NCBI GenBank assembly: GCA_054600435.1
Contig: BAAIJX010000012.1
Location: 434,001-498,000, forward strand
Direction: 5' to 3'
DNA: 64,000 nt
Origin: Neophaeotheca triangularis
Lineage: Eukaryota
Made by a program: the position numbers and the translations under genes. Within the stretch, counting starts at the first letter, position 1. The number at the start of each line of letters is the position of its first letter. Shown one piece after another: positions 7,478 through 58,565 of this stretch. The notes below the pieces were generated by a model. The model had not been told where the DNA came from and did not search any database. It worked only from the letters and a program-made list of their open reading frames with translations.

Positions 7478-9532
7478 TGTGATTGTTATTGGACTCGGAG
7501 TGTTGGGGTCTGAAGTTGGATATCGTAGTGTCTTTTTTATCGTTCAATGGCCCTCGATCGTAAACAGAAATAAAAAGATAACAGAAAGTCACTTTTGACT
7601 ATCGGCGGTGGAACTTTAAGCAAAGAGGGAGCCCCTCCTTAACCCCTCGAAGCGTTATCGGAGCCGTGTATCAGCGCGCTGACTCCCGGCCCGAAATGGT
7701 CAGCAATTTTTTATCTGCGTGCAGCAAAGGCGTGCTCGCCAAGACGGATCGCACGTGAAGGCAGAAAGACTCTGCATCTCTACTCGGGTACTACCTGGAC
7801 CTCACCTCTTGGAAGTCGGAGTCGAAGTGGAAGAGCATACTCTACATTCACTGGTATATCGACTTGTTCCGACATCTGCTTCTTTCAATGATGGAGAAAG
7901 CATTCATTGACAGACTGCGAGTTCATTAGCCAGCATTAAAGCAGCCTCGCAAGACGAAAGAAGCCCCTGAAAGGATACGTTCGTTCACGAATCAATACAA
8001 GCACAAGTATCCACCTTACTATTGCTAGAAAACAGACTCACTCTATTCGTAGACACAGTAATACGAACTCTTTGACAGCAGACCCATGAGACGTTCGCGC
8101 TCCGTTTCTGGCTTTCGTGGGCTTGGACTGTGCTACACCGTCCAAGCCCAGCACTCTTTGAGAGACGCCACAGTGTTTGACATGTTGTCCGCGATAGAAA
8201 TGTGCATGACGGCGCGTCGTGACAGTGGCAAGGACGGTACTGGAAACCTCACCAGATCTTCCACTGGCCAATACCCTGCGTCCCCCGTGTCCTCCATGTA
8301 GATGTCGCCAGTCCGGTGACGTTTGGATTGTTCTCCAGGTATTGATGCAGAACCAATATGGCACATCCCGCGGGCAAGAGAATCGTCGAATGAGTCGATC
8401 GCGGCCGGTGAGAAGCAACATCCGAGCAATCCATGGGAAGTTTGCGGCGTTCATGGTTCCACCGATGCGGCCATGCGAATACCCATGGCTCCGGCACGAT
8501 CAAGATCGGGCACAAGGCCGTCAATTACCTGCGCTGCGGTTGAAAAGGCGTGAAACGGTCGTTGCCACACCTGGCAATTCCTATTTGCGCTGGCTGCGAT
8601 CTGACTGTAATCTGGCCGCAATCTAGCTGCTGCGTGTTTGGCTAGATGCAGCCCGTCCATTCTAGACCACACCCGCTTGCGAACCATTTAATGGTATAGG
8701 AAGGAGGAGGGAGAAGGTAGGGGAATAGAAGTAGGTATAGTGTGATTTCATGTGAAGCTGATCTGAGAGATTCCGCTTCACTTGGGGGGGCGCTCACAAG
8801 TATTCACCTCACCTCACCTCACCGCATAACAAGCACTCCACGTGCCTTATAGTAATATCAGGTGCTCTGCTGCGCCTCATTCAGCTTCGTCCTCATGACG
8901 TCTTCCTTGGTCTGGATCTACTGCGGGCTTCTATCTGTTCAATGCTGCTAACTTTTCCTCCTCCGTCTACTTCCAGCAAAACCAGCATTGAGGATCTTTT
9001 TGACTGCCCAGCAGAGAAGACAGCGAATAGGCCGCACTGCATTGGTGCAATACGCCATCTCGGTGTCCACATTGACCGAAGGGCAGGCATAACGTCACTG
9101 CGCTTGAGTGAGGTTTGGGAAAGAGCGGAAGACCTGGACGCGCAGTGACGGAGCTAGCTCCGCCGCTTGACCGCCCCTTTAAACCTCCCGCCAGATAGGT
9201 ACCTTACCTCCCACCTTCACTTCCAACAACTCACAAACCACCGCCAATACCTACCTCACCGTCGCGACATCAACACAACCCTCCTTCCTACCTTCAGCAC
9301 GGCAAAGCGCCATTCTCATGAGCTTGCAAAAACATAGTCGTATCCACTCCCACAACACACTTCCAACAGCTTCCCTACCCAACCACCGCGCTCAAGCCAG
9401 CCAGACGACGCATAGGCGCTCCGTCGCCGACTGATATCTCCACCGACACGAAAACCGTCACATCTACACGACACTAGCATTACACCAGCCATAACTTAGC
9501 CCACTCAGAGGCAGAGGCACACCAGGTAAGCG

Positions 9533-11566
9533 ATGGCACCACCTTCGCTTCCACTCCTTCCCACTCGTCGGCGCTCGACAAGCTCTATGCGACGCGACAC
9601 TGCTAAAAGCCAAGACTCTTCGCTCTTTCGGGAGCGGGTGAGTAAACGATTTTTGGCAGCGAGCGCTCTGCTCCTGTGGCCAGTGGCGTTCTTCGTCGCC
9701 TTCGGAGAATTGTCTTTGGGAAACTTCATTGACACTTTGTACTGCAGCACAGTCAAACAAATGTTTTATCCCAGCAGGGAGGGCTGGGAGCGAATCGTCG
9801 TGGCCATTTGCGGGCCTGGAAGCATCGGTGAGGAACTGTGCGGCAACACTAGAGGTCTGGCTCGAATGCTAATCATCAACATCATAGAAACGATGTGGAA
9901 AGCCAAAGAGAACAGGTTTAAGAAGACTGTCGCGGCGTCGGCCAGCAATGGCAGACGCCACGGCAAACTGCCGGATTACGAATTGCTCTCGGAGCATTTT
10001 TCATGCAAAACGACATCCGGCAAGATTGCCAGTATTCTCCGCCTCAGCCCTACCACGTCAAGGTCAGAGACCGCGACGCCGACTCCAAAGGCGGAGGCCG
10101 AATCTGCAGTGGCAATGCCAGCAGAACCAGAGATCGAACTCTGGGGGCCTCCGCCGGCGGAAGTCGAGGAATACGACTGGAAGTTGTACCAGATGTGCGG
10201 CCACGCCGAAGACAGCAACCCCCCAAGTCCTTCCTCAATTCCTGAAGCGTGGCCCGAGAGTAGCAGCTTCGAGAGCACGTCCACAGAGCAGCTGGACAAT
10301 GACTGCAATACGTACGGCGTCAGTTTCGAGCAGCAGCAAAGCACTGCGCATACTACGCCCGATACCTCATTTGGCGAAAAAAAGCCATTGTACAACGAGA
10401 AGGGCGAGCTCGACATTGAAGCCGCCTTCGCGAACGACCCCGAATGGATCAGGAGAGAGGCGAGGCGAGAACGCATTAGAAAAGGCGAAGAGTTGCCATT
10501 CGACGTGTGGGTTGGACGCCGCAGGCCCCGTGCCTCGCCACAAGAGGTCGTCGACAAGGACCTTCCCGTACCATGGGACCTCTGGAACGAAAAGGAGCGC
10601 AACGACTACCTTTTTCACACCACGCGCCATGAGTCGTACATTAAAGATGGCGTCAGTGTCGTTAAAGGCTTTAAAATCCCACCGAGGCAGATGCTTCAGC
10701 CACCACTGCCAAAGCAGCAACCTACCGCTCGTCGACAGTCACTCTTAGCTCGAAATCTGCGAAAGGCTTCGATGCCTACAGGAGAGCACAAGGTTCGCTT
10801 TACAGTCGAAACGAAAGGTCCAGGTGTCTTTAGGCCAAGGATCGATCATCCCCGTGAGCATCACTACAAGGACTCCACCGGTCTCCCCGCCTCGTACTAC
10901 GGAAGCGCTCCAATCAGCAAAAGCTTTATGGAAGCCGCCGGTAAGCAAATGGCGGGAGTTGCAGCATCTTACGGGGCGGTCTACGAGGAAGAGGACGGGG
11001 CGGACGCAAACGCAGTCACCGAGCAAATGACCCGTGCCAGCAACAGCAAGGGCAAAGCTCCAGCCACCGACGTCAAAGACATCAAACATGTCAAAATCGT
11101 CACCTCAGCCGAAGCCGAGAGCGCCATCGAGTCCGACGACGAGGATGAAGACGAAGAGTCCGCCTGGGAATCCGTCGCCCCTACCCCTGAAAACCTGCCT
11201 CCTCAGCCTACCCAACTTCCACCCGCTCAACCTGAAGCCTCCAAGAAACGCACCCTTTCTACCAAGGTCCCTAAAAGCATTCTCAAGAAGCAACGTCCCG
11301 TCTTCCCAAAACCCCCTGCCTCTCCCCCAGGAGCCGAGAAAGAAGAAACCTACACGCTCGCTCCAACGAAGCAGAAGCTGGCCCCTGAGACCAACAAGGC
11401 TCAAAATGGCCCTCGTTTCCCAGAAACGCCAAAGAGCATGCGCGTCCGTTCGCCAGAGGTTGTGGATTCGGTTGTTGCCAAGTCTCCCGCTACAGCGGCT
11501 GTGACGGTAGACACGGATATCAAGTCGGCATCGTGGAAGGCGGGGCATATTGAGATGGTGGAGTGA
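9533..11566 (+). CDS. Hypothetical protein (677 aa), largely low-complexity, one N-terminal hydrophobic segment
   Basis: Long uninterrupted ORF preceded by a C-rich 5'UTR-like region; no family motif recognised; true start uncertain. Confidence 0.6.
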   Translation: MAPPSLPLLPTRRRSTSSMRRDTAKSQDSSLFRERVSKRFLAASALLLWPVAFFVAFGELSLGNFIDTLYCSTVKQMFYPSREGWERIVVAICGPGSIGEELCGNTRGLARMLIINIIETMWKAKENRFKKTVAASASNGRRHGKLPDYELLSEHFSCKTTSGKIASILRLSPTTSRSETATPTPKAEAESAVAMPAEPEIELWGPPPAEVEEYDWKLYQMCGHAEDSNPPSPSSIPEAWPESSSFESTSTEQLDNDCNTYGVSFEQQQSTAHTTPDTSFGEKKPLYNEKGELDIEAAFANDPEWIRREARRERIRKGEELPFDVWVGRRRPRASPQEVVDKDLPVPWDLWNEKERNDYLFHTTRHESYIKDGVSVVKGFKIPPRQMLQPPLPKQQPTARRQSLLARNLRKASMPTGEHKVRFTVETKGPGVFRPRIDHPREHHYKDSTGLPASYYGSAPISKSFMEAAGKQMAGVAASYGAVYEEEDGADANAVTEQMTRASNSKGKAPATDVKDIKHVKIVTSAEAESAIESDDEDEDEESAWESVAPTPENLPPQPTQLPPAQPEASKKRTLSTKVPKSILKKQRPVFPKPPASPPGAEKEETYTLAPTKQKLAPETNKAQNGPRFPETPKSMRVRSPEVVDSVVAKSPATAAVTVDTDIKSASWKAGHIEMVE

Positions 11567-24927: not shown

Positions 24928-25840
24928 TCAAGCCAAGCCAAACACAGCCACCGCACCCGCCAATGCCATCAGACCCACAGCACCAACAGAGGCAAAAGGC
25001 TTCACCGCAGCCGCAGCGCCCTCTTCACCCTCCTCCTCCCCTTCTTCCTGCTGCTGCTCCTCCTCCTCCTCCTCAGAAGTGGGTGTAGCCTCAGCCCCGC
25101 CCTCAGTAGTCTCCGTCCCCGTCCCCGTCGCCGTCGTCGTAGCCGTGCTCGTGCTCGTAGCCGTAGCCGTAGCCGTCGCGGTCACGGACTCAGTCTACAA
25201 GCCAGCCATTAGCGTCAAACCGAACACAAGCCCCCACGAACCTCTTCCGTGGGCCCTTGGTAAAGGAAACAGTAAACAAACTCACCTGTCCCTCGGTAAC
25301 AGTAACCGTAACACCACCGGGCTGGACTTGCAAAAACGTCTGCCCTAGCGAATCCGTCGTCGTGAGCGTGCTCATGGCCGGCCTCGTCGTGCCCTCGCCG
25401 CTGGCGCCCGGACCGGGAACGGGGACGATTTCCTCGTCGGCGGGTGTGGTGGTCTCGGGGTCAGCGGGTCCCGCGGAGCTCGTGGTCACGACGAGGGTCG
25501 TGGTGCTCTCCGGATCCGCGGGGATAGTGAGAGTGGTGGTTTCGGGCTCGAGGGTTACAATGGGCACGACAACGGAGGGCTCGGAGTCTGAGTCTTCGGC
25601 TGTGGGTGGGGGTTGGGCTTGGTCGGGGGGCGAGGTTGCTGTGGTTGTAACGGTGGTCGTTGGGGTGGCGGGTTCTGCGTCGGCGGGCTGTTGGGTCTGG
25701 GTTTGGGTTTCGACGTTGGTTGTTGGGGTTATTGTTGTCGTTTCGACCGTTGAGGTTTCGACTTCCGGTTGGTTTTGGTCTTGAGGAAGGGCGGAGAGGA
25801 GGGTTGGGAGGACTGCTAGGAAGAGGGTGGAGAGCTTCAT
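24928..25840 (-). CDS. Secreted Thr/Pro/Glu-rich, probably GPI-anchored cell-wall protein; intron 25285-25195
   Basis: Signal peptide MKLSTLFLAVLPTLLSA; Thr-rich body; CAG|GTGAGT...GCTAAT...TAG intron; C-terminal GAAAA...hydrophobic tail VGAVGLMALAGAVAVFGLA. Confidence 0.85.
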
Positions 25841-28634: not shown

Positions 28635-31600
28635 ATGCCTCGCTCACCCAGTCGCCGTGACCGCGACCGCGACCGCGACCGCGACGAAGATCGCTACCAG
28701 CCGCGCCGTCGTGATGAGAGGTTCGAACGCGACCGCCGCCCACATGACCGCGACCGCGACCGTCGTGACCGTCACTACGAAAGCCGCCCCAACGACCGCT
28801 ACAATGCGCGCGAACGTTCTCCGCGCGGAGACTCCTACCGTCGTGATCGTCGCGACCGCACACGCTCAAGAGATAGGCACGACAACCGCGAGAAGCGCCG
28901 CGGGGACCGCGACGAGACAGAAGACCGTGACCAACGTGAGGTGAAGAAGCCGAGGCGTGACATTGCTGAGGAGCGCCCTCACCGCGACGAGAAGAAAAGC
29001 GAAGAGAAGCCCGAGAAGAATGTATGTGAACAGTGTACTCTTGACTACGAAATATACTGGTTCACTGACGATAATGTAGGGCGCCGCACCCCAAACCGAG
29101 GCCGATGTAAAGGCCGAAGCCGAAAGGAGGCGCAAGTACGCTGAGAACCTCGCTAGAATCAAGCAGAGGGTCAGCGAGGCCGAGGGAAAGCCGACTGCTT
29201 CAGTTACCATAGCCAAAGGTAATGGCAAAGAAGCTTCTGCCTCTGGCTCTGGCTCTTCGCCAAATCCACTAGCGGACACAAACGCAAAACCTTCGAGCAA
29301 TATTGACACTCTCGAAGCCAAATTTCAGAAGAAACCAAAGGTGCTAGGCGGCGACTTCAAGCCCACACCAGCGATGAAGAGCATGCCATCCCAGAACACC
29401 AACAACGCCCCCTCGCACCAGGCTGTGAACCCCAACGGCAAGTTTGCAGGCATTAAACTCAACAGGAGCAAGCCCACGAGCACCAAGCCTGGCCCTCCCG
29501 TACCGGCCAGGAAGGGACCTGCTGGGTTTGGTGAAGAGGAGGTTGTTGAGCGCAAGAAGTTCGTGCCTCTACCAGAGATGACTGCCGAGGACCAGATGGA
29601 CATCCAAGACGACGGAGACGACGAGAGTGATGTCATTCAGGACGATGATGAGGAGGCCGCTGGTCACTTGGCCGCTGCAGACAGGAGGGCTAGGGCGGCT
29701 ATGGCTGCTGTTCAAGAATCTGCGACACCTGCCAATGGAGTAGTCAGGGTGGGTGGTGAGAAGAAGGCGGCACAAGCGAATGGCAACGCAGACGAGGAAG
29801 AGGTGGATCCACTCGATGCATACATGGTCGGTATTGAAAGGGAAGTTCGCAACGCGCCGAAGCTCCCCGCTTCTGCAATGAGGCACGTTCCGAGGGTGTA
29901 CCACAACGATGACAACGAGGTCACGATCGATGCCGTTGGGGACCAGTTCGATGACATCGATTCTCATCGCAAGAAGGGCAGCAAAAAGAAGGACTTGCCT
30001 CCGGTCGACCACGCCAACATGGACTACGCTCCTTTCCGCAAGAACTTCTACACCGAATCCTCCGAACTGAGTGAGTTGACCGAAGATGAGGTGCAGCTCG
30101 CTCGCATGAACGAGGGCGTCAAGGTCAAGGGCAACAACCCACCGAAGCCGATCAACAAATGGTCTCAAGGTGGCTTCAGCACCCAAATTCTCGACATTCT
30201 GCGCGATCGAAAGTATGAGAAGCCCACCCCAATCCAGAGGGAAGCCCTTCCAGCGATTCTATCGGGTCGCGACATGGTCGGTGTTGCTCAAACGGGGTCA
30301 GGCAAGACCGTCGCCTTCATCTTGCCCATGTTCCGTCACGTCAAGGATCAGCCTCCTATTGAGAATGGAGATGGTCCTATCGCGGTCATTCTTGCTCCCA
30401 CCCGCGAGCTTGCATCGCAAATTCACAAGGAATGCAAGCCATACTTGACTGCATATTCTCTGCGTGCGGTTGCCGCGTACGGAGGCAGCGATCTTAAGAC
30501 CAACATTGCGGAGATGAAGCGTGGTACGGAGATTGTGGTTGCGACGCCGGGCCGCTTCATTGAGCTACTCACGGCGAACAACGGCCGAGTCACCAACCTC
30601 CATCGCGTCACCTATCTCGTTCTCGATGAGGCTGACCGCATGTTCGACATGGGTTTCGAGCCGCAAATCATGAAGATCATGAACAACATCCGCCCCAACC
30701 GCCAGACCGTCTTGTTCTCCGCCACGCTTCCGATGAGCATTCTCGGTTTAGCGAAGAAGAAATTGACCGACGCCTTGGAGGTTACAGTAGGGAGCCGCAG
30801 TGTTGTCGCTGCCGATATCACGCAAAGCATCGAGGTTCGCGAGGAAGACACGCGCTTTGCCCGTCTTCTTCAGATTCTCGGCGAAACGTACCACGATGAG
30901 AGCGTGAAGGACCGTACGCTAGTGTTTGTGGAACGCCAAGAGGCTGCCGATGCACTCTTTGGCGACCTTCTGAAGCGTCAATACAGTGCCGTCACTATTC
31001 ACGGAGGTCGTGAACAGATCGACAGAGAGGACTCGATTAGAGATTTCAAGAACGGCAAGGTCTCCATCATGATTGCTACGTCGGTCGCCGCCCGTGGTCT
31101 GGACGTCCAAGAGCTTAAGCTCGTCATCAACTACGACCCGCCAAATCATCTCGAGGACTACGTCCACCGTGTTGGTCGTACTGGTCGCGCGGGCAACAAA
31201 GGCAACGCCATCACTTTCGTTTCGGAAAATCAGTGCAAGACTGCTCCCTTCCTTATCAAGGCTCTTAAGGACAGCAAGCACGACATCCCGGAGCCTCTCA
31301 AGAAGCTCAACGAGTTGTTCGAGGAGAAGGTCAAAGAGGGCAAGGAGCGCAAGCTTAACAATAGCAGGCAAGGATTCGCTGGCCGGGGTACTGAGCGTTT
31401 TGCAGCGCAGCGTGAGCAGGAGCGTGCGCGCGAAGGCAAGGCCTTTGACAATGACGGGGAGGCAGTGGAGGAGGACGAGGGCAAGGACAAGGACAAGAAG
31501 CCGGAGAGCAAGCACCAGGAAGCAGTAGACCAGGCAATGGCCAAGGCCATGGGTGGTAGTAATGTTACTAAGGCAGGCGAAGGAGAGGCTCAAGCTAACA

Positions 31601-33312: not shown

Positions 33313-35635
33313 ATGAGCGTCAAAGCAGCTGGCAAGCCCGCCTGGTGGAAGGAAGCCGTTGTCTACCAAGTACGCCCGCATCTTCACAATAGCTAGCAAT
33401 CTTATCATTGCTCTGCTCTGCTTCACGGGTCGAGGAATTGTTCATCGTGTTCATGGCATACTTACTCTCGCCACCAGGTCTGGCCGGCTTCGTTCAAGAG
33501 CACCGGGTCCGGCAATACCAAAGGCTGGGGCGACATCAAAGGCATCATCTCCAAATTGGACTATATCAAGCATCTCGGTGGTAAGATTGTCTCTAGTCTT
33601 GGGTTTCGTTGGTGGAGGTGGGAGTGAGACTGATTTTTTCGCTTGTAGCGGATATTGTTTGGACGAGCCCGATTTTCAAGTCGCCGCAGATTGATATGGG
33701 GTATGATACTGTAAGTTGTTGGTCTGAGGGATGGAAAGGGTGTTTATGGTGCGGATTATTAGAGGCTGATTTTTGTGGTACAGGCGGACTACAAGGACAT
33801 CGACCCCTGCTACGGCACGTTGCAGGATGTGGATGACATGATTGCTGAGCTCAAGAAGCGAGACATGAAGTGGATGGCTGACCTGGTTGTCAATCACACG
33901 TCTGACCAGGTATGGTGTACTTGTTAAACCCCGACTGCAACCAACGTCCTAACGTCTTTGTCTACCAGCACGAATGGTTCAAAGCCTCGCGTTCCTCCAA
34001 AGACAACCCCAAACGCTCCTGGTACATCTGGCAGCCGGCCAAGTACGACGCAGACGGCAACCGCCAACCCCCCAACAATTGGTCCATGACGCTGGGCGAA
34101 GCGCACTCGGCCTGGACCTGGGACGAAGCGACGCAGGAATACTTCCTTTCGCTCTTCACCCCCGAGCAGCCGGACCTCAACTGGGAGAACCCTGACGTCC
34201 GCGCCGCCGTCCACGACATTTTGCGCTTCTGGCTCGATCGCGGCGCTTGCGGGTTCCGCATGGATGTCATCAACCTCATCTCCAAGACCCCTGGCTTTCC
34301 CGATGCGCCTGTCGTTGCGCCCGATCACAAATATCAGCCCGGATTCAAGTGGTATGCTAATGGTCCGAGGTTGCATGAGTACTTGCGCGAGATTCATGAT
34401 AAGGTGTTGAGTAAGTATGATACCATTACTGTGGGCGAGATGCCTTTTGTCAGTGATGAGAACGAGATTTTGAAGGTTGTCGGGGCTGAGGCTGGGGAGT
34501 TGAGGATGATTGTGAGTATTGCATCCTGTCTTGCGGGTGGGAATGAAGTGTCTTTGCTAACTTCCTACGGCAGTTCATTTTTGACCTCGTCAGCGTGGAT
34601 GATGTCCCGGGCTCTTACCGTTTCACGCTGCGTGATTTCGATGCCAGAGAGATCAAGCAGATCACCAAGCGCTGGCAAAAGATCATGATCGACAGAGATG
34701 GCTGGAACAGCTTGTTCATTGAGAACCACGACAACCCCCGAGTAAGCCAACCCTCACCGTCCGCAAAATTATACCCACCCAATCTAACCCTACCCCTAGA
34801 GTGTCTCCCGCTACACCGATGACTCCGACTCCAACCGCGCCCTCGGCGCCAAACTGCTCTCAATGATGCAAACAACCCTCTCAGGCACAGTCTACGTGTA
34901 CCAAGGCGAAGAACTCGGCATGCGCAACGTGCCGCCCTCCTGGGACCCATCCGAGTACAAAGACGTTGAAGCCATCAACTACTGGAACAAGATGAACGCC
35001 ATGTACCCGGATAACCCTTCGCAAATCAGCCACGCCAAACACGTCCTACAGCGCAAAGCCCGTGACAACGCTCGCACGCCCGTGCAATGGAGCGGCGAAG
35101 CCAACGCGGGCTTCTGCGACGCCGACGTCGAGCCTTGGATGCGCGTCAACGACGATTACAAGGACGTCAACGCGGAAGCGCAGAGGAAATTCGACGAGCC
35201 GGACCAACTGTCGGTTCTGCAGTTTTGGAAGCGTGGTCTCGCGAACCGCAAGGAGCACAAGGACGTCTTTGTCTATGGCGATTTCTTGATGTTGGATGAG
35301 GAGCATGACAAGGTTATGGCGTACAAGCGTTTCAGTGACAAGGAGGCTTTTGTCACTGTTTTGAACTTTTCGGGCGAGCAGGTTGAGTGGGCTTTGCCGC
35401 AGGAGGCAAAGATCAAGGCTTGGGTTGCGGGCAATTACTCGAAGAGTAAGCCGGAGAAGGCTACGAGTGGGAAAGTTGTGCTTAGGCCTTGGGAGGCGCT
35501 GCTTGGTGAGTTGCTTTCGCACTGTATCCTTAAACTCTCGAACTCCCTTGCTTGCTCGATGCCGCGATACTTGCTGTCTTGGAATTTTACCATGGAGTTT
35601 TGCTAATGCTTGTTACAGCTTCCGCCGACGTTTGA
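33313..35635 (+). CDS. GH13 alpha-glucosidase (maltase / oligo-1,6-glucosidase), multi-exon
   Basis: WWKEAVVYQ|VWPASF, DLVVNHTSDQ|HEWF, PPNNW, QPDLNWENP, GFRMDVIN (nucleophile), TVGE (acid/base), IENHDNPR, YQGEELGM, ARDNARTPVQW; about 7 GT-AG introns. Confidence 0.93.
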
Positions 35636-47963: not shown

Positions 47964-49339
47964 CTACCTCGAATAGCTGGGATGTAGCATCGCAGTGCTA
48001 TTCCTGCCCTGCTCTAGCTCGTACGCTTCTCTTTCACCCTCCGTCCGTGTCTCTCCGGAGTTCCAGGTACCTGTCCGGCCCTCTTCCATTCTTCCTGGAT
48101 CACTTCCGCTGCCATTCGAACCAAGCTCTGCTCTCTTCCCTTGCCTTATTTGGGTGCCCTTGCTGTAGGTCCCCTCCTCGCCGACGTAGTTTCCAACGCC
48201 GACAGCAATGCCCCAGGCGCGATTCCTGCTCCGTGGTCCCCAGGCCCAGCCGTTGGAGCGGTTGAGGGGCAAGTGGTACCATCTGAACGAAAACCAGGCC
48301 GTGATGATACCGATCAAACTACCAACGATAATGTCCGCGGCCCTGTGGTAAAAGTCCGTGTAACGCGAGGCGTTGATGTAGAGGGAGACAGCTATCGGAA
48401 GGAAAGCCGGGATGAGGAGGTAGTTGGGTGGGGCGGCAGCCTGATCACGAGGCGCAAGTGAGCGGAAAGTTTGGCTGCCGTTGGGGGAGTCGTCGTCGAA
48501 TTTGGGGCCGCCGTTGCCGTTGATGGCTGCGGCGTCTGGGACGTCTTCGTGGCGAGCAGAGTGAAGCGGGAGGAGTTCGGTTCCGGGTTGCGAGCGGAGG
48601 CCTTGGTAGGATGCGTTTTGGTGGGGTAGATAGGGGAGCTGGATCGAGAATTTGGAGCAGATAAATAAGGATAGGTAAAGGAGACCAGACCAGGAAAAGG
48701 AAGAGTGGCCGCTAGGAAAGCTGCGGAAGCCATCTCGTAGCATGTGTGCATCGGTTTGCGTGCAGATGTCGGCGGTGACAAGTACCCAACGCGGATCGAA
48801 TTGTTCTCCGTAGCGCGAGCCAGTGTAGTAATCACTGATATTGTCCACATCCGGCTCGCACCTGCTCAACAGATCAGGCCTGGGCACACCAAAGAGGTTC
48901 TTCAAGCCTTGTGTGATAAAGAAGGCCGTTGCGCATGATAGCGCAAGACCTGCCAATCCCTTTTCGAGCTCCCAGAGCTTGCGCTTGAAGTATTTCGCCT
49001 TGTCTTGATGTCGCAGCGCCGCTGGTCCGGGGACGAAGATGAGGACTATGAGGAAGATGATGACAGCCGGTGCGAGGAGTGCCACTACGCCGACTGCAGC
49101 GACCGAGACGGTGTTGGGACCATGTGGGAAGGCGATGCTGAGGTCGAGTAGGGAAAATGGCCGTCTAAAGGGTTCTACCCAGTTGAGGCCAGCGCCTATG
49201 GCGGCGATGATGCTGTGGAGGGCGGAGGTTAGTTTGCGCGCAGTAGAGATGCGCAATGAAGGTGGTGTGCTCACATGATTACAATCCAGTCGAATATATA
49301 AGACGCAATGAGCGACTTTGAGGGTATCTTGAAGTTCAT
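47964..49339 (-). CDS. PAP2-family lipid phosphate phosphatase (Dpp1/Lpp1-like); intron 49274-49213
   Basis: Exon 1 MNFKIPSKSLIASYIFDWIVI; motifs KNLFGVPRP (C1), SFPSGHSS (C2), SRYTDFYH...D (C3); several transmembrane segments. Confidence 0.9.
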
Positions 49340-50903
49340 GGCGGAAGGTCGCGCATCTACAGTGGGATGCAATTAGGCCCGATGTGAAGAGGGTGTAGGA
49401 AATAGAAGGGAAAGGAGGTTGCTAAGGGTGTGAGGAGAAGAGGAATGGAGAAGTTCCCACCATGGTAACAAAGCTGTGAAGCTGCTGAGACAAGGGCGTA
49501 TCGCTATGTACACGCCCAGGTCTTGGCCCCGCTCTGGCCGCGCGCTCCGTCAGCAGCGTAAACTTTGACGGAATGGTATGGGAAGACGTCAGCTCCTTGC
49601 AAGGCTGTGTTGTTCACCTCTTCTGCTTGGCTGGTTATAGTTTTGCTTACAAGATGGATTGCCAATCCGGGATCGTGCCGTCGGCGGGCATCAAGTCTGC
49701 TTGACAAGCATTTGGAGTACGCGGCTCGGATCTTTCTACTTTCAGATCCGGTGCTCGCGTTTGACTCGCATTTGTTATCAGATCGGAATGAGCTTTTTCA
49801 ATATGAAGGACAAATGTGCAAATAATTTACTCTCTTCCTGCCTTAAAGGCTACAGAGGAAGTGATGCTCTTTCGGACGGGTTCGGTTCTTCAACACCGCC
49901 TCCCTTGCTGCTTTTGTAGCGTAGCGCGCCGGTAGCAGTAAAAAGTCGTTGCCAGGAACGGACCATCCAAGCCAGAGGTCGGTGAGGTTGGGGAGATCGT
50001 CTGCGCCAGTAGGACCTGCTCCGATGAGGGCCCTTCCTGGTTTGAGACTTGTGAAGAAGCATGCTGTCTGTCTTCGTAGTTGAATAGTTGGCTCCCATCA
50101 TGGCCTCTGGCTTCGTGACCCAGTCTCCTGGTGACGTGTATGGAGGCCGCCGCGAACACTCCATGCTGCACCAAAGTGGAACATACGATGAATGATATAT
50201 TCTTCTAAGTATCCAGTTCGATCAGAAAAGGCGAAGTAGTTGAAGTTTTCCAGACACTGTACCTGGACGCACTTGTCCTACTTAGGGTTGGGGTTTGAGT
50301 GGCAGTCGACCGCACCTCTTCTTTGCTATTGCATCAGCAGCGACACTGCTATTCATTCAAACGTCGAAAGCGATCGTTCGATAGCCCGTATGTTAGAGCG
50401 TGAGAGTATGACGAGTGCCGGCGAAAAGGGGAAATGAGATTTCTACATTGGATCGTTCATTCGGTACAAATTGAGCTTTGCTGGCATCAATCGGCCATTA
50501 TCGACACAATTTTCACGTGCAACGATATGTTACATAGAAAACAAGGAGCCTCCGATAACTAGGTTTGCTGCAAGTTCACGTGTTGCACACCCACATTGAC
50601 TGCGAATGTGCAAAGGGTATTGTAGCGATCGAGCAATGTATAGGCTTCAGGAAAGCCAAAAAACAGTCCCGAGTGCTTTGATCGAGTCTTGCGTTTGAAT
50701 GGCTGTATTCATAACCTTTAGAGACACGTTTAATCCTATGTAGAGAAGATATAGACAGCAGGAAGCAAGATAGACGCAAGGACTATGTGACAAGCAAAAA
50801 ACCAGGGACTGAAGCGCAGCTGATCATGCTCAAGTTAGCCTAGGTAAGGATGCAAAAATGATTACGGGATTATGAAATAACAATGAAACATCAACAAAAA
50901 TGC

Positions 50904-50910
50904 AAAAAAA
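50904..50910 (-). terminator. RNA polymerase III oligo-T terminator (T7) of the tRNA-iMet gene
   Basis: A7 on the + strand is T7 on the - strand, 5 nt after the discriminator base; a second run (T5) follows at 50900-50896. Confidence 0.8.
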
Positions 50911-50915
50911 GTGAG

Positions 50916-51104
50916 TAGCTGAGAATGGTTTCGATCCATTGCCCTCCGGGTTATGAGCCCGGCGCTAAATTGTTTGTCAGGATACATAATTCCCATCTAG
51001 TCAGGGTTCGAACTGATGCATACCGCTTCCGCTGCGCCTATTTTGTCAAGAGTTAATTATAAGTGGAACAAATCAAGGATTTGGAGAGTACTAACCACTC
51101 AGCT
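50916..51104 (-). tRNA. Initiator tRNA-Met(CAT) split into exons 51104-51096, 51037-51024 and 50964-50916 by two GT-AG introns
   Basis: Joined exons read AGCTGAG TG GCGC AGCGGAA GCGC G CCGGG CTCATAA CCCGG AGGGC AATGG ATCGAAA CCATT CTCAGCT A (72 nt). All four stems are fully Watson-Crick paired, with A1:U72, G29-G31:C39-C41, A54/A60 and anticodon CAT at 50955-50953. Confidence 0.93.
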
Positions 51105-52915
51105 AGATGTGTGGTTTGATTGACACATTAGTACATCCCATTAATGTGAGTGATGATAGTGGAATTCGAGGATAATAATATATATCGGTTTTTTTGTAAT
51201 TCTCGCTCCACCTAGGTAATTGAAGTCATCTTGAGAGCCGAATTGCATACACCTCAACATCAAGGCTCAAGCTTCGTTGTAGAGGTCAGCAAGCATCAGG
51301 CTTACTGATAAGTTTAACGCGAAATTAACAAGTTATAGCGCTTATCCAGAACCATAGATAGTCCAGAGTCCTAAGCTTGTAATAAGTAGAAAACATTAGA
51401 AATTCATTATAGAAAAAAAAGGTGTAGGATCCCTTTCATTCTGTAAAAGCACAGATCTCTATACTAATAGTGCCTGTACACTTATTGTTATGATCGGATC
51501 GGCTACATGTAACTAAAGCAGAAACCCGATACAGCAAATCGCCTCACTGCGTCAAAAGAAGATCTCGCGAGATGTCGAGAAACATCAGCCATCGAAGAAA
51601 CAACCGAACGCCGCATCTCTCGCATTCGGTCGACATATGAAATCGACTTCAGAGGCAAAGTGCTCAAGAAAGCGTCGATGATTGACCCGAACTGACAATG
51701 GCACGGAAAAGCTCCCTCCTGACGAAAAAGCAGCTGATCATTGACCAAAGTGTATTCCCCAACGAGTATGCCTTGCTGTAATATTCGAAGCAGTAGAAGC
51801 GTATCGTTCCGGCCGATACTACTTGTCAACTAACGATTGCAGTCGGCATCAGCGTGCAGAGGACGTTTTCTGCCGGATTGACGGAAGCTGGCTTATCGAC
51901 TCTACGATGCTCTGGTACTCTTCAGCCATGTCTTCAATCCTGCCCATGCAGAAAACCGAGACCGTATACGCCCGAGCACAGAAAGTGATGCCGGGATCCA
52001 ACTCGAAGTAGGAGATTGTCCCTGATGATGCCTCGAGCAATGCCTTGATCCGACATTTGGAAGGCTTCTATAGTGGGCAGAGTAGGTCGGCTTTTCAAGC
52101 GAGTGAAAACAGAGATGATTGGGATGCCCTAACCAGCCGAGAAAATCTACACCCGGGCAAAAGACTACTCAAGCATGCTTGTAACCTTACAGTCCCGAGC
52201 CTTGCAGCGATCAAGTCATCTCGAGACTTTAAAGGCAGGAAGGGTAAGGGACATTCAGCGACCAACATCGTCAGAAGTATCTCTTGACCTCGCTTGAAAC
52301 TCGAAGTTCTTTATCCCTGGCATCCTTAAGCTGGATCTGGCGGCTCTGCGCTCGTTCAATGATCTCACAGCAGAGAAAAAAGCGGCTTTAGCTCCCAGCA
52401 TTGAAATTTAGTCCAGGCTCCATGAATCCCAAACCACCGAGCGCGGACGTGGCGGTGGAGGAGGGCTACGCCGCTGTTTTCCAGGTCGGGGACGATATTC
52501 CATCGACTGCGCGCCATTGAACTTCAGCAAGTCGTCAACTTCATTTCTCATCCCTACCCTCAACCACCGTGCCTTCCGTCAGCTCTGCCCGCCCCCCCTG
52601 ACTATTCCCCTCATAACCCCCTTGTGCAGCCCTCTCTAGTTCAAACGCGAATCCATCCTACTAGAAAATTCCCAAAAGAGCCGCTCCAGTCTCCTCTATC
52701 TGCACGATGAGCAAATCGACAAGACGCCAGACGTTAGAGTTGCGTAAAAGCAGAAGCGCCATGGGTTTTGCTACCATCGTCGCGAGAGGTGATGGCGAGG
52801 AACCCCGGCTCCGTGAGCAAAGGCATCTATCGTGCGCAAATGCCCGCCGTCCGTCGTCGGGTGGGAGATGATACAATCAAGATCCCACGAGCTCTTGCTC
52901 CCACGCCTACACGAA

Positions 52916-53170
52916 CCACCGACGGCGACTCCGAAGCGCGGGTCGAGGGCGGAAGCGCAGGCGGCTAGACCCTCGTTGGGGAAGTTGACGGTACGGGTGG
53001 TTTGCGCGATGAGAAAGCCTTCATAACTACCACCTAGCCGCGACATAGCCACCGACGAGGACTCCGAAGCGCGGGTCGAGGGCGGAAGCGCAGGCGGCTA
53101 GACCCTCGTTAGGGAAGTTGACGGTGCGGGTGATTCGCGCGATGAGAAAGTTTTCCAGAGCAATCTCTAG
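52916..53170. repeat. Two-copy tandem duplication, period 133 nt
   Basis: 52916-53017 versus 53049-53150 differ at about 6 of 102 nt; each copy is followed by ctagccgcga. Confidence 0.9.
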
Positions 53171-53964
53171 CCGCGATATTCGTATACTAGGACAAAGGCC
53201 TTCCTTCAAGCGCTTGTACGGACTGAACAAAGACCTGCCCGCACCCTTCCTGGCGCTGAGAGAGAGCTTTTTGACCTCCTAAAGGCTCACCGGAAGCAGG
53301 AGGCAGAGTAACTGCACCGTCGTGTAGAGCGAGCTCCGGCGACAGACAAGGGCCGTGTAGCAGAGGGGTTTATCGTAGAGCGCCGCGCAGCGCCAGCTCG
53401 TTACTACACACCTTGTTGCACACGTTCAGTTGGTCAACCTCTGCCGGCGGCACTTCTCGCGTCGTCAAGTCCTGATCCGTACACTTGTTGATGCAGACGC
53501 TGTTGACTGAGATCTTGGCCAACCTGCGGTAGTCTGGGAAACATTTCTCTTCGCAACCTGCAACAACAGCACCTACCAACATAGCACGCTACGCTTGCTC
53601 AAGCTACTCAGACGCTCAAAAAAGTCCTTTCAAACGTTCAGCTGCTGAAGCTGCTGCCCTCAGCGCTGCTTTATTCAGAGACGAGACTCACTCTGCCTCA
53701 CACACCATCGAACCCTTGCACGGGCAAGCCATGGATCGGCGACCACCCACGTGATCACATATGCCGGGAGTATCTCCTTTGCTCTGAACGCGATCTACTG
53801 TCTCTTGGAAAACCGCAGTGGAGTGCTATTTCACCACCAAGGGCTACGCATCCCTTGTAACTGTTGGCGATTACGTCGCACCCAACGTACAATGCTTTCT
53901 TTTGTCCATCCGAAGGGTTAATCGCGCTATCATCCGACGCACAGCTTCCTTCGTAGCAAAGCCA

Positions 53965-54734
53965 TCAATCCTCATCCGACGAATAGCCCCCGAGCCCAAG
54001 AGCAGGCTGCACAGTTGGCGAGGCCGACTTCTTCTCAAGAGACGTGACAGCAGGCTCAGCTTTTGAAGCAACCTCCTCGCCCTCCACAGAAGGTACTGCA
54101 GTCTCAATCTTCTCCGACGGCTTGAGCGGTGACTTGACCTCTTCCTCTTTCCCCTTCTCTGCCGTGCTAGTCCTTCTAATCTTCACACCACCAATCAATT
54201 CCCTCTCTTTACCCTTCTTCCTCTTCTTCGGCCCAACCTTCCACATGTCCTGCATACCATCCCCCTCTGGCGCCACCTCAACCGGGCCCTCTCTCAAAGC
54301 AGCTTTCTCAGCCTCGTCCCTCTGCTGGCGAAAGAGTGCCAGATCAGCCGCAGTCTGCGCTTTGACCTTTCTAGCCTCCTCCTCTTGCTTAGCAGCAGTA
54401 GCATTCAAGAAATCAATCTCAGCATCATCGAGCGTGGGAAATTGATTCTTCAACTTTGCTGCTTCCTCAAAAGCTTCTTGCTTGGCGGCTTAAGGCACCT
54501 CTGACTCGTCAGTCACGCACAAATGCCCTACTTACTACTCGGTCGAAATCTCAAGTCACCTTTGTTCGCTTGCAGCGTCTCGTACAGCGAAGGGCCATTG
54601 CTGCCTTGCTGCTCGCTTTGGAGCTTCTCCCTCTGTTTCTGCTCGACTTCACGCTCGGCTTTGGACCAAGCTTGGTCGCGCTCAGTCGGGGCCTCGTCGG
54701 TGCCGCCGGAGACGAAGCGTGATGTGGAAGGCAT
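53965..54734 (-). CDS. FAM192A/PSME3IP1/NIP30 (yeast Fyv6) family protein; intron 54559-54489
   Basis: SRFVSGG...SLYETLQANK|AAKQEAFEEAAKLKNQFPTLDDAEIDFL...LALFRQQ; C-terminal LGLGGYSSDED. Confidence 0.88.
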
Positions 54735-55756: not shown

Positions 55757-56895
55757 ATGGCAAAGAACTGGACCAAGGAGTCGTTCACTCTGAACACTGT
55801 ACGTTTCCCGCCCTCGCCACCAACTCCTCCATCAACATCATCGACATGATCATCTTCACCACCACCACCACAAATGGAATATCGAATACTAACTACAACT
55901 TCAACAACAGGGCGCTAAGATCCCCGCCGTTGGTCTTGGTACCTGGCAATCCGCCCCCAACGAGGTTCGCACCGCCGTCAAGGCTGCCCTCGACGCTGGC
56001 TACCGCCACATTGACACTGCCCTCGCCTACGGCAACGAGCACGAGGTCGGCCAGGGTATCAAGGACTCTGGTGTCCCCCGTGAGGAGATCTGGATCACCA
56101 CCAAGCTCGACAACCCATGGCACAAGCACGTCGAGGAGGGCATCACCTCCTCCCTCAAGTCCCTCGGCACCGACTACGTTGACCTCTACCTCATGCACTG
56201 GCCTTCTTCCACCGACCCCGAGGACTTGAAGAAGCACTACCCCGACTGGGACTGTAAGTGGAGAAATTAAGCCCATGATTAATTCATTCGAGTTTTTACT
56301 AACTTGTAATTTTTCAGTCGTCAAGACATGGGAGCAGATGCAGAAGATTGGTAGCACCCGCGCCAGGAACATTGGTGTTTCCAACTTCGCCATCAAGAAC
56401 TTGGAGAAGCTCCTCTCGGACTCCACCTGCAAGACTGTCCCCGCCGTCAACCAGGTCGAGCTCCACCCCAACAACCCCAGCCCTAAGCTCGTCGACTTCT
56501 GCAAGGAGAAGAACATCCACTGCACCGCCTACTCCTGCCTCGGCTCCACCAACAGCCCTCTCGCAAAGGACGCCACTCTCCTCGAGATGGCCAAGAGCAA
56601 GGACAAGACTCCCGCTCAGGTTCTGTAAGTCGAGCCACTGCCAGCGAAATTATACAAACGCAACACCCAGCTAACAATATACCCCTTTAACAGCCTCATG
56701 TGGGGTCTCCAGCGCGGTACCTCTGTCATCCCCAAGTCCGTCACCGCTTCCAGGATAGAGGCCAACTACCAGCTCGACGGCTGGTCGCTCACCGACGACG
56801 AGATGAAGAAGCTGTCTGGCTTGCCCGACCGCTTCAAGGTCTGCGGTGACGGCTGGCTCCCCGTCAAGGTCTTCTTCGGTGACGACGAGTACTAG
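55757..56895 (+). CDS. Aldo-keto reductase (Gcy1/Ypr1/glycerol dehydrogenase-like); introns 55799-55910, 56254-56317, 56625-56693
   Basis: FTLNT|GAKIPAVGLGTWQ, GYRHIDTALAYGNE, ITTKL, DLYLMHWP, IGVSNF, NQVELHP, VIPKS. Confidence 0.95.
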
Positions 56896-57167: not shown

Positions 57168-58565
57168 CTACAACTTCGAAGACCCCTTCGGCCTCTCCAA
57201 CTCCTTCGTCTTACGTTCATAATTCTTCGCAAGCTGCCTAACCATCAAATCAAGCATGACATCCTCAGAACCACCCCTACAAACAAACCCAGTTAGCATC
57301 ACGCCCAACACGATAAAAAGGCCAAGTACTCACGGCACGCGATTTCCATTAACCTCCCTCCACATCCTCTCAGCAATCTCCCCCTTACCGGTCCTCGTAA
57401 ACCCATTGCCGCCAAAAAGCAAAACCGCACAATCCGCACACTCCTTCAAAACAATCCCGGCCTGCGCTTTCGCCGCCGCCGTCAAACCCCCCAATTCCCG
57501 ATCCCCCTCCTCTTTGCCCATGACACTCATCTGGAAGACAAACTGCTCCACCCACGCCCACAAGCTCTCAACCAACACCCCGGCCTTGGCCAGCCGATGC
57601 CGCACCACCGGCTGCTCCATCAACTTCTTCCCAAAAGCCTCGCGCTGCAGCACGTAAGCAAAAGCCGCCGAGAGCGCCACTCTCGCCTGCCGCGTGCATC
57701 CGATCGCTATCGTGAGCCGCTCGTGGTTGAAATTCGTCATGATGTAGCGCATGCCCTGGCCCTCGAGCCCGATTAAATTCGTCGCGGGCACTTTGACCTC
57801 GTCCAGCTCCATGTACGTCGTTCCCGCCGAGATTTGCCCCGAGACTTTCAGCCGTCGCATTTCCACGCCCGGCGTGTCCTTTAGCGGCACCAGGAGGAGG
57901 GATAGCCCGGCGGCGCCGCTGTTCTCGTCGCCCGTGCGTACCGCCATGGTGGCGTAGTGGGACCAGATGCCGTTGGTGATCCATTTCTTCGCGCCGTTGA
58001 CGACGTAGTGTTTGCCGTCTGGGGTTTTGGTGGCGGTGGTGCGGATGTTGGCGACGTCGCTGCCGGCGTCGGGCTCGGTGATGGCGATGCAGGCGCGTTT
58101 GCGGCCCGTGAGCAAGTCCGGCAGGTATTGGTCTTGGAGTTGCTGGGAGCCGAATTTGAGGATCGGGGGCACGCCGAAGGCCACGCCGGTCGTCAGACTG
58201 CCGCTGGGGCCCGCGAGACCGGAGCGCAGCATTTCGTCCGTGTAGATGAGGTTGTGGAAGGGGGTGAAGTCTTCGACTTTGACCGTGGCCAGGAGGGTGT
58301 GGATTCCGTTTTTCTTGAGAGCCGTCACGGGCAGGGGAGCGGGCAGGGCTGGGATTAGCATGTTGTGTTTTGCAAAGGTCTCGAAGACGTGGGGCGGGAC
58401 GGTTTCCTCGCGTTCCCAGTCAAAGGCGTGGGGGGTTAGGTGTTCGCCTATGAAGGCGCGGCAGGCTTTTTGCCATTGCCGCAGTTCTGGAGTGTAGTAG
58501 GGGGAGGGTAGACCGGAGAGATAGGGGGGCTCGCTGAAGGGGACTGGGGTTGGGTTGCCTGTCAT
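57168..58565 (-). CDS. Acyl-CoA dehydrogenase with peroxisomal PTS1 (-SKL); intron 57333-57277
   Basis: Start MTGNPTPVPFSEP; CIAITEPDAGSDVA, NGAKKWITNG, NFNHER, QREAFGKKL; spliced end RVP|GGSEDVMLDL...KGSSKL*. Confidence 0.92.

Follow-up and report, generated by a model that had tools for sequence, protein, structure and literature searches.

Small stable RNA genes of fungi can be interrupted by the same kind of intron that interrupts protein-coding genes. One case is that of the U6 genes, which are transcribed by Pol III and which, in S. pombe and many other fungi, contain up to four spliceosomal introns (Tani and Ohshima 1989/1991 and Canzler et al. 2016, cited in passages of PMC5855946). 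According to the same passages, these introns have canonical splice sites at either end and a canonical branch site and are otherwise unconserved, and the Schizosaccharomyces U6 intron holds a match to the B box (Frendewey et al. 1990, by its title as listed in PMC5855946). Spliceosomal introns have additionally been described in U1, U2, U5 and rRNA genes (Bhattacharya et al. 2000; Takahashi et al. 1993/1996; both in PMC5855946), which agrees with the statement of an earlier, sequence-only reading of this DNA (the initial annotation) that such introns are known in fungal snRNA and ascomycete rRNA genes. What determines the insertion of introns into non-coding RNAs is called unclear there, and the passages of PMC5855946 that deal with spliceosomal introns of stable RNAs name no tRNA case.

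Introns of tRNA genes and of mRNA genes are removed by separate machineries (passages of PMC10275265). Eukaryotic tRNA introns that are cut by the SEN endonuclease lie at position 37/38, have no conserved terminal motifs and pair with the anticodon, and the bulge–helix–bulge (BHB) motif is given in the same passages as a 4-bp helix formed by the 5′ exon with the intron's 3′ part, with the sites of cutting in the neighbouring 3-nt bulges (PMC10275265). Multiple non-canonical BHB introns occur in the tRNA genes of Cyanidioschyzon merolae, nucleomorphs and archaea (passages of PMC3978253). A full-text literature search yielded no description of spliceosomal or GT–AG introns in a tRNA gene, as the initial annotation had supposed; subscription journals and supplements may differ in this respect, and the nearest phrase retrieved was 'non-spliceosomal tRNA introns'. 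Thus, mRNA-type introns are known in fungal stable-RNA genes, and what is described here for the first time is a tRNA as their host.

The gene that we describe lies on the minus strand of a 64-kb stretch of fungal DNA, all of which was analysed and which we call the window. It had been read as three exons separated by two inserts, and re-reading of positions 50800–51250 returned the same structure base for base (Table 1). In standard tRNA numbering the inserts fall at 9/10 and 24/25, again as proposed. Exon 3 comprises the anticodon arm with CAT, the variable loop, the T arm and the 3′ acceptor strand, and is followed by CTCAC, a run of seven T residues that had also been reported, GCA and a run of five T residues (50900–50896). 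When the exons were joined by their coordinates in a script and the product was given to ARAGORN, cutting at GT and AG produced the predicted 72-nt tRNA-Met(CAT) cloverleaf, with an acceptor stem of 7 bp, a D stem of 4 bp, an anticodon stem of 5 bp, a T stem of 5 bp and no mispaired position in any stem of the ARAGORN cloverleaf. ARAGORN found no tRNA in the unspliced locus, nor after excision of either insert alone.

Eukaryotic cytoplasmic initiator tRNAs are marked by an A1:U72 pair, by three G:C pairs beside the anticodon loop and by A54 and A60. All of these marks are present in the 72-nt product: its top pair is A1:U72, its anticodon stem pairs are c-g, c-g, g-c, g-c and g-c, with the three loop-proximal pairs being G:C, and its T loop is ATCGAAA, with A54 and A60. 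The sequence A54-U55-C56 is given for initiator tRNA in passages of PMC3978253. The three pieces are unmistakably those of one initiator tRNA gene, and chance is excluded as the reason for their fit.

Table 1. Features of the split initiator tRNA gene and its candidate transcription signals (window coordinates)
Feature	Position	Strand	Description
Exon 1, AGCTGAGTG	51096..51104	minus	9 nt; tRNA positions 1-9: 5′ acceptor strand, U8, G9
Intron 1, GTTAGT...AAATAG	51038..51095	minus	58 nt; GC 0.31
Exon 2, GCGCAGCGGAAGCG	51024..51037	minus	14-nt micro-exon; covers the D stem and loop (standard tRNA positions 10-24)
Intron 2, GTATGC...ATTTAG	50965..51023	minus	59 nt; GC 0.39
Exon 3	50916..50964	minus	49 nt; position 25 to discriminator
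A-box-like element, TAGCTGAGTGG	51095..51105	minus	From the base just ahead of the tRNA, across exon 1, to the opening G of intron 1
B-box-like element in intron 2, AGTTCGAACCC	51004..51014	minus	Pattern G[AT]TCGAA.CC; putative role
T-loop B box, GGATCGAAACC	50927..50937	minus	Initiator type (A54, A60); pattern G[AT]TCGAA.CC
T7 run, terminator-like	50904..50910	minus	5 nt past the discriminator

Judged by their sequence, both inserts would be classed as U2-type GT–AG introns, each having an extended donor, a YAG acceptor, a YTRAY branch site and a suitable length. Intron 1 has the donor GTTAGT and the acceptor TAG, with two branch-site matches, TTAAC (51056–51052, with the A 15 nt before the final G) and TTGAC (51049–51045, 8 nt). 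Intron 2 has the donor GTATGC and the acceptor TAG, with the branch-site match CTGAC (50980–50976, A 12 nt from the last G). The initial annotation was therefore right that both inserts contain branch sites, and the exact matches that it gave are replaced here by TTAAC or TTGAC for the first insert and CTGAC for the second. The boundaries of the inserts can slide without any change to the joined product, through three registers for insert 1 and two for insert 2, and exactly one register of each begins with GT and ends with AG. We defined a full signal as a GTNNGY start, a YAG end and a YTRAY element with its A 6–35 nt from the end. Across both window strands, real introns included, this signal was found in 10 of 127,884 58-mers and 6 of 127,882 59-mers, so the joint chance of splice-type signals at the fixed boundaries of both inserts is ~2e-8, with the alternative registers allowed for.

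The window also contains mRNA introns against which the inserts can be compared. Two introns of an aldo-keto reductase gene are confirmed by RNA (55799–55910, 112 nt, and 56254–56317, 64 nt); both are GT..AG introns, with the donors GTACGT and GTAAGT and with TACTAAC 18 and 15 nt from CAG, respectively. A third intron of this gene, read by eye, spans 56625–56693 (69 nt, GTAAGT...GCTAAC...CAG). Further introns came from a scan for full-signal segments whose excision joins two open frames of at least 80 codons each, which returned 25 candidates versus 1 in the reversed sequence, a comparison that is partly circular for the motif positions that the scan requires. Among the clear candidates are those at 29022–29079 (58 nt, GTATGT, CTGAC at 11 nt, TAG), at 34512–34573 (62 nt, GTGAGT, CTAAC at 13 nt) and, on the minus strand, at 25285–25195 (91 nt). 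Plain chaining of open reading frames was too ambiguous to define introns (3 full-signal candidates among 422 frame-compatible ones, from 39 ORF pairs) and was abandoned. The branch site of the local introns lies 11–18 nt from the end. Consistent with the initial annotation, the two inserts share both signal style and length with these neighbours (58 and 59 nt, compared with 58, 62, 64, 91 and 112 nt), and their donors are sub-optimal relative to those of the two RNA-confirmed introns, with T at +3 in GTTAGT and with U at +4 and C at +6 in GTATGC. Signals and length together partly support the view that the inserts are spliceosomal-type introns, which the spliceosome would then remove.

One alternative is that the inserts are non-canonical tRNA introns that are cut by the tRNA splicing endonuclease and joined by ligase, or removed by another protein nuclease, and that their GT and AG termini are incidental. 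Introns in the D arm do occur in multi-intron tRNA genes in which a BHB guides the endonuclease (passages of PMC3978253). We therefore searched each valid register for this motif with a simple ungapped geometric test, which relaxed variants could escape, and found no complete BHB in any of them. The registers of intron 1 had 1, 0 and 2 of the 4 central-helix pairs, and those of intron 2 had 2 and 3 of 4 with poor flanking helices. The case most favourable to the endonuclease, register 0 of intron 2, reached 3 of 4 central pairs, its outer and inner pairs numbering 1 and 2 of 4, respectively, so that for both inserts the valid registers lack a full central helix with flanking helices. In the minimum-energy fold of the precursor, the junctions likewise do not lie in paired 3-nt bulges. 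The positions argue in the same direction, since eukaryotic tRNA introns sit at 37/38 and have unconserved termini (passages of PMC10275265), whereas these inserts lie in the D-arm region and each has a complete set of donor, branch site and acceptor, the joint chance of which is given above. Removal by a protein nuclease is, in our judgement, highly improbable.

The sequence around and within the gene contains signals of Pol III type. An A-box-like element, TAGCTGAGTGG, overlaps the 5′ end of the gene and is an exact match to TRGCNNAGTGG, which we take to be the A-box consensus. This consensus has two matches in all across the two strands of the window, this element among them, and we give the match little weight because it largely follows from the conserved 5′ end of initiator tRNAs. 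The natural A box, at positions 8–19, is interrupted by intron 1. The pattern G[AT]TCGAA.CC, presumably that of the B box, is assigned both to the T loop (GGATCGAAACC) and to an element inside intron 2 (AGTTCGAACCC); these two are its only matches on either strand of the whole window, an observation made post hoc. Measured from start to start, the A-box match is 91 bp from the intronic B-box-like element and 168 bp from the T loop. There is no run of four or more T residues within the 189-nt precursor, and the T7 run follows exon 3 closely. Runs of at least seven T residues occur nine times in 128 kb (both strands), giving a chance of ~7e-4 that one would start within 10 nt, or ~3e-3 at the rate of the AT-richer spacer in which the gene lies. 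By sequence, then, the locus has the makings of a type 2 Pol III gene, with putative A and B boxes and an oligo-T terminator. We did not find support for a stronger avoidance of T runs in the tRNA introns than in mRNA introns: a run of at least four T residues is present in one of five local mRNA introns, and because only one of the five examined has such a run, the lack of T4 runs in the inserts does not discriminate between the two.

The spacer that holds the gene is 4.5 kb long and is flanked by a PAP2 phosphatase gene (47964–49421, minus strand) and a gene for a FAM192A/Fyv6-domain protein (53965–54489, minus strand). The window as a whole is ~54% GC, and the spacer is AT-richer (GC 0.45 for 50–52 kb). 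Of the ORFs in and around the spacer, 42 were translated and scanned, and two gave matches. The first, of 38 residues, is to the palm of family-X DNA polymerases (52771–53097, minus strand; 28.7 bits against a cut-off of 25) and marks a relic located on a 107-nt tandem duplication; the second, to Tim10, is sub-threshold. These translations revealed no host protein gene around the tRNA. The one public RNA run found, a metatranscriptome in the form of contigs (0.08 of the region's words), gave eight records, on neighbouring genes, with depth in 9 of 30 bins; depth was zero from 49173 to 53848, which says nothing about expression of the tRNA locus.

These surroundings bear on the possibility that the tRNA is spliced by the spliceosome from a Pol II transcript, either of a non-coding host or of upstream read-through, from which RNase P and RNase Z would afterwards free it, and that the Pol III-like signals are leftovers. 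Such an origin would account for spliceosome recruitment, which is normally coupled to Pol II, and it could draw on a TATA-like AT-rich block ~66–82 nt upstream and on the split of the natural A box. However, no intact minus-strand protein gene abuts the locus, the ORFs between 51.1 and 53.9 kb yielding only the polymerase X relic and the sub-threshold Tim10 match; the spacer has no RNA contigs in the one metatranscriptome; and the T7 run, the missing internal T4 and the box matches fit Pol III. We consider a Pol II origin very unlikely.

The initial annotation had also predicted that standard tRNA finders would miss the gene, and both programs that we applied, ARAGORN and Rfam, were blind to the genomic locus. 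ARAGORN reported no tRNA in the raw window, whether its intron option was on or off, and Rfam gave no match at gathering thresholds. In permissive mode the Rfam tRNA model recovered exon 3 only, at 23.3 bits compared with a gathering score of 29. Because ARAGORN and Rfam both miss this locus, annotations of fungal genomes may systematically lack genes of this type.

To place the DNA, we used the single-exon acyl-CoA dehydrogenase gene of the window (57333–58565, minus strand), for which the best named homologues are 74–78% identical. These come from Meristemomyces, Hortaea, Elasticomyces, Baudoinia, Teratosphaeria, Zymoseptoria and their relatives, and because of them we assign the DNA to a Dothideomycete resembling the Mycosphaerellales and Teratosphaeriaceae. 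In Mycosphaerellales, introner-like elements are present in hundreds of near-identical copies, which are stably structured and roughly double the length of regular introns (passages of PMC3609843). Described in protein-coding genes, these elements carry canonical splice signals wherever they are inserted, degenerate into regular introns and drive intron gain in their clade (PMC3609843). The inserts of the tRNA gene lack the double length and the stable structure: they are 58 and 59 nt long and have no excess structure (folding z of +0.27 for intron 1 and +0.41 for intron 2, 200 shuffles each). Neither has a further copy in the 64-kb window, neither has terminal inverted repeats, and any target duplication amounts to at most 1–2 bases. 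Their alignment to each other scores 33, compared with 16.3 ± 5.8 and a maximum of 38 among shuffles; beyond their signals they resemble each other little. Because of their regular length and lack of excess structure, the inserts are not fresh introner copies. They may have arisen by intron gain, either through reverse splicing into an abundant RNA or from a degenerated introner-like element. If they derive from introners, the copies must be old, and that the exons and splice signals are nevertheless intact is mild evidence for selection on the split gene.

The apparent age of the inserts also matters for another explanation, that this is a dead or redundant initiator copy, one of several, in which two intron-type insertions, such as degenerated introner-like elements, have landed. 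The locus would then be silent, or its transcript would not be spliced productively, and intact copies elsewhere would supply the tRNA. Several circumstances would suit it. The analysis covered the 64-kb window, and intact initiator genes in the rest of the genome could make this copy dispensable; species with active introner-like elements, which bring canonical signals with each copy (passages of PMC3609843), are near relatives of this lineage; the AT-richer spacer also houses the duplicated polymerase X relic and is thus a region in which dead sequence survives; and the zero metatranscriptome depth was counted on this side too, for all that it is silent on tRNA expression. Set against these are the 72 exon bases, which are free of defects in the stems and in the initiator marks checked, and the intact terminator and box signals. 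Moreover, the inserts do not look recent, being of regular length, unstructured, single-copy in the window and mutually dissimilar; since they look old, a dead copy should show decay of its exons or signals. Two independent insertions into one dead target of 72 bp would also be a remarkable coincidence. A dead or redundant copy is a possibility that we take seriously and nevertheless doubt.

We also looked for related loci in contig collections. In metagenome contigs, AG followed by exon 2 and GT occurred at at least 120 loci, and the downstream T-arm and anticodon exon accompanied 0 of the 120 among the matches listed, so this pattern is unspecific. A gapped pattern of exon 2, intron 2 and anticodon had no matches in prokaryotic genome contigs and none in viral contigs; the corresponding pattern of exon 1, intron 1 and exon 2 had none in viral contigs and matched four prokaryotic genome contigs. 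As the collections searched with gapped patterns are prokaryotic or viral, absence from them means little. Two of the four matches are bacterial coding sequence and were rejected as relatives. The remaining two are mycobacterial chromosomes, matched at the same offset.

The explanation that we lean towards, on the strength of the sequence, is that the initiator tRNA gene works and that the spliceosome removes two introns from its Pol III transcript; the gene's anatomy, splice-type signals, lack of a BHB and Pol III-type signals are observed, and its transcription, the removal of the introns and its function are what we infer from them. In this scheme, the nuclear initiator tRNA-Met gene of a dothideomycete would have gained two U2-type GT–AG introns, at 9/10 and 24/25. 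Guided by the A-box-like sequence at the 5′ end, and by the B box of the T loop, the B-box-like element of intron 2 or both of these, Pol III would start a few bases upstream. With no T4 run in its way, the polymerase would read through both introns and stop at the T7 run. The spliceosome would then excise both introns by intron definition and join the 9, 14 and 49 nt of the exons. As long as the introns split the D arm the tRNA cannot fold; its D arm and L-shape would appear only after splicing, to be followed by RNase P and RNase Z processing and CCA addition. Points against the scheme are the sub-optimal donors, the split of the natural A box and the lack, to our knowledge, of a tested case in which a first exon of 9 nt is spliced on an uncapped Pol III transcript. 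More tentatively, and with rather less confidence than the scheme itself, the gene may be functional and dependent on splicing, possibly as the main or only initiator of its lineage, with the intronic B box restoring a workable spacing between the A and B boxes.

If this explanation holds, the gene would be the first tRNA gene with spliceosome-dependent maturation, and the separation between tRNA and mRNA splicing would be broken by a tRNA that needs the spliceosome. We speculate that the supply of initiator tRNA is linked to splicing, in which case translation initiation would be tied to splicing capacity through that supply. The number of tRNA genes in fungal genomes would have been underestimated. 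Such a gene would also show that intron gain reaches even a 72-nt Pol III gene, which bears on the choice between reverse splicing and insertion at the DNA level, and it would offer a natural substrate for studying how the spliceosome copes with Pol III transcripts that lack a cap and begin with a 9-nt exon followed by a 14-nt micro-exon.

Among the known systems closest to it, this locus resembles the fungal U6 genes in that it is a gene for a small stable RNA with Pol III-type signals, interrupted by several short introns with canonical signals, and like the Schizosaccharomyces U6 gene it has a B-box match inside an intron, here intron 2. It differs from U6 in that its host is a tRNA, whose D arm is split by the introns, and in being known from sequence alone. 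As a tRNA is not part of the spliceosome, reverse splicing into an RNA at the spliceosome's active site does not explain how these introns were gained. Spliceosomal introns have reportedly also been found in U3 snoRNA genes (PMC5832005). With the introns of rRNA, snRNA and U3 genes the inserts share the placement of mRNA-type introns in abundant fungal non-coding RNA genes, some of which are not transcribed by Pol II, and they differ in the class of the host RNA, which here is a tRNA. As with SEN introns, a nuclear tRNA gene is interrupted and the intron has to be removed before the tRNA works; unlike SEN introns, there are two inserts, placed away from 37/38 and carrying GT, branch and AG signals. 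The cases of Cyanidioschyzon, nucleomorphs and archaea resemble this one in having several introns at non-canonical positions and in being missed by standard finders, but they belong to other lineages and have at their junctions the BHB that is absent here. Introner-like elements, finally, come from the same fungal neighbourhood and are a source of new spliceosomal introns that turn into regular ones, which makes them a plausible origin of the inserts; unlike those elements, the inserts are 58–59 nt long, unstructured and without a second copy in the window.

The split initiator tRNA-Met gene, which carries two mRNA-type inserts, lies in an AT-richer spacer, and we found that GC content was 0.45 at 50001-52000, compared with 0.51-0.59 in the rest of the window. 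A domain scan of ORFs revealed no convincing protein gene in this 4.5-kb spacer (49.4-54 kb). We observed a short match (38 residues, 28.7 bits; cut-off 25) to the family-X DNA polymerase palm domain PF14792, which coincides with a tandem duplication. Because this palm match stands without further polymerase domains nearby, the match and the duplication together look, from the sequence, like the relic of a polymerase X gene. A weak, sub-threshold Tim10/DDP zinc-finger match may mark an intron-split small Tim gene.

Features near the tRNA gene and candidate introns elsewhere in the window
Feature	Position	Strand	Details
Candidate intron	10353-10303	minus	51 nt, full signal, donor GTATGC
Tandem duplication, 107 nt	52916-53022, 53049-53155	minus (ORFs 52771-53097, 53027-53278)	93% identity, spacing 133
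Tim10/DDP zinc-finger match	53370-53588	minus	17.1 bits (cut-off 22.3)
Gene with FAM192A/Fyv6 N-terminal domain	53965-54489	minus	PF10187, E 1.6e-12
Putative third aldo-keto reductase intron	56625-56693	plus	69 nt, GTAAGT...GCTAAC...CAG, read by eye

Two further candidate mRNA introns were considered. The putative third intron of the neighbouring aldo-keto reductase gene lies beyond position 56500, where the RNA comparison at this gene ended. The 51-nt candidate has a GTNNGY donor, a YTRAY branch site and a YAG acceptor, and the second tRNA intron shares its rare donor. This candidate may not be a real intron, given that a long plus-strand ORF (9530-11566) runs opposite it.

The first gene upstream of the tRNA gene, on the same strand, is the one encoding the FAM192A/Fyv6 domain. 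Fyv6 of yeast is a second-step splicing factor; that this gene lies close to a tRNA gene carrying mRNA-type introns is probably coincidental.
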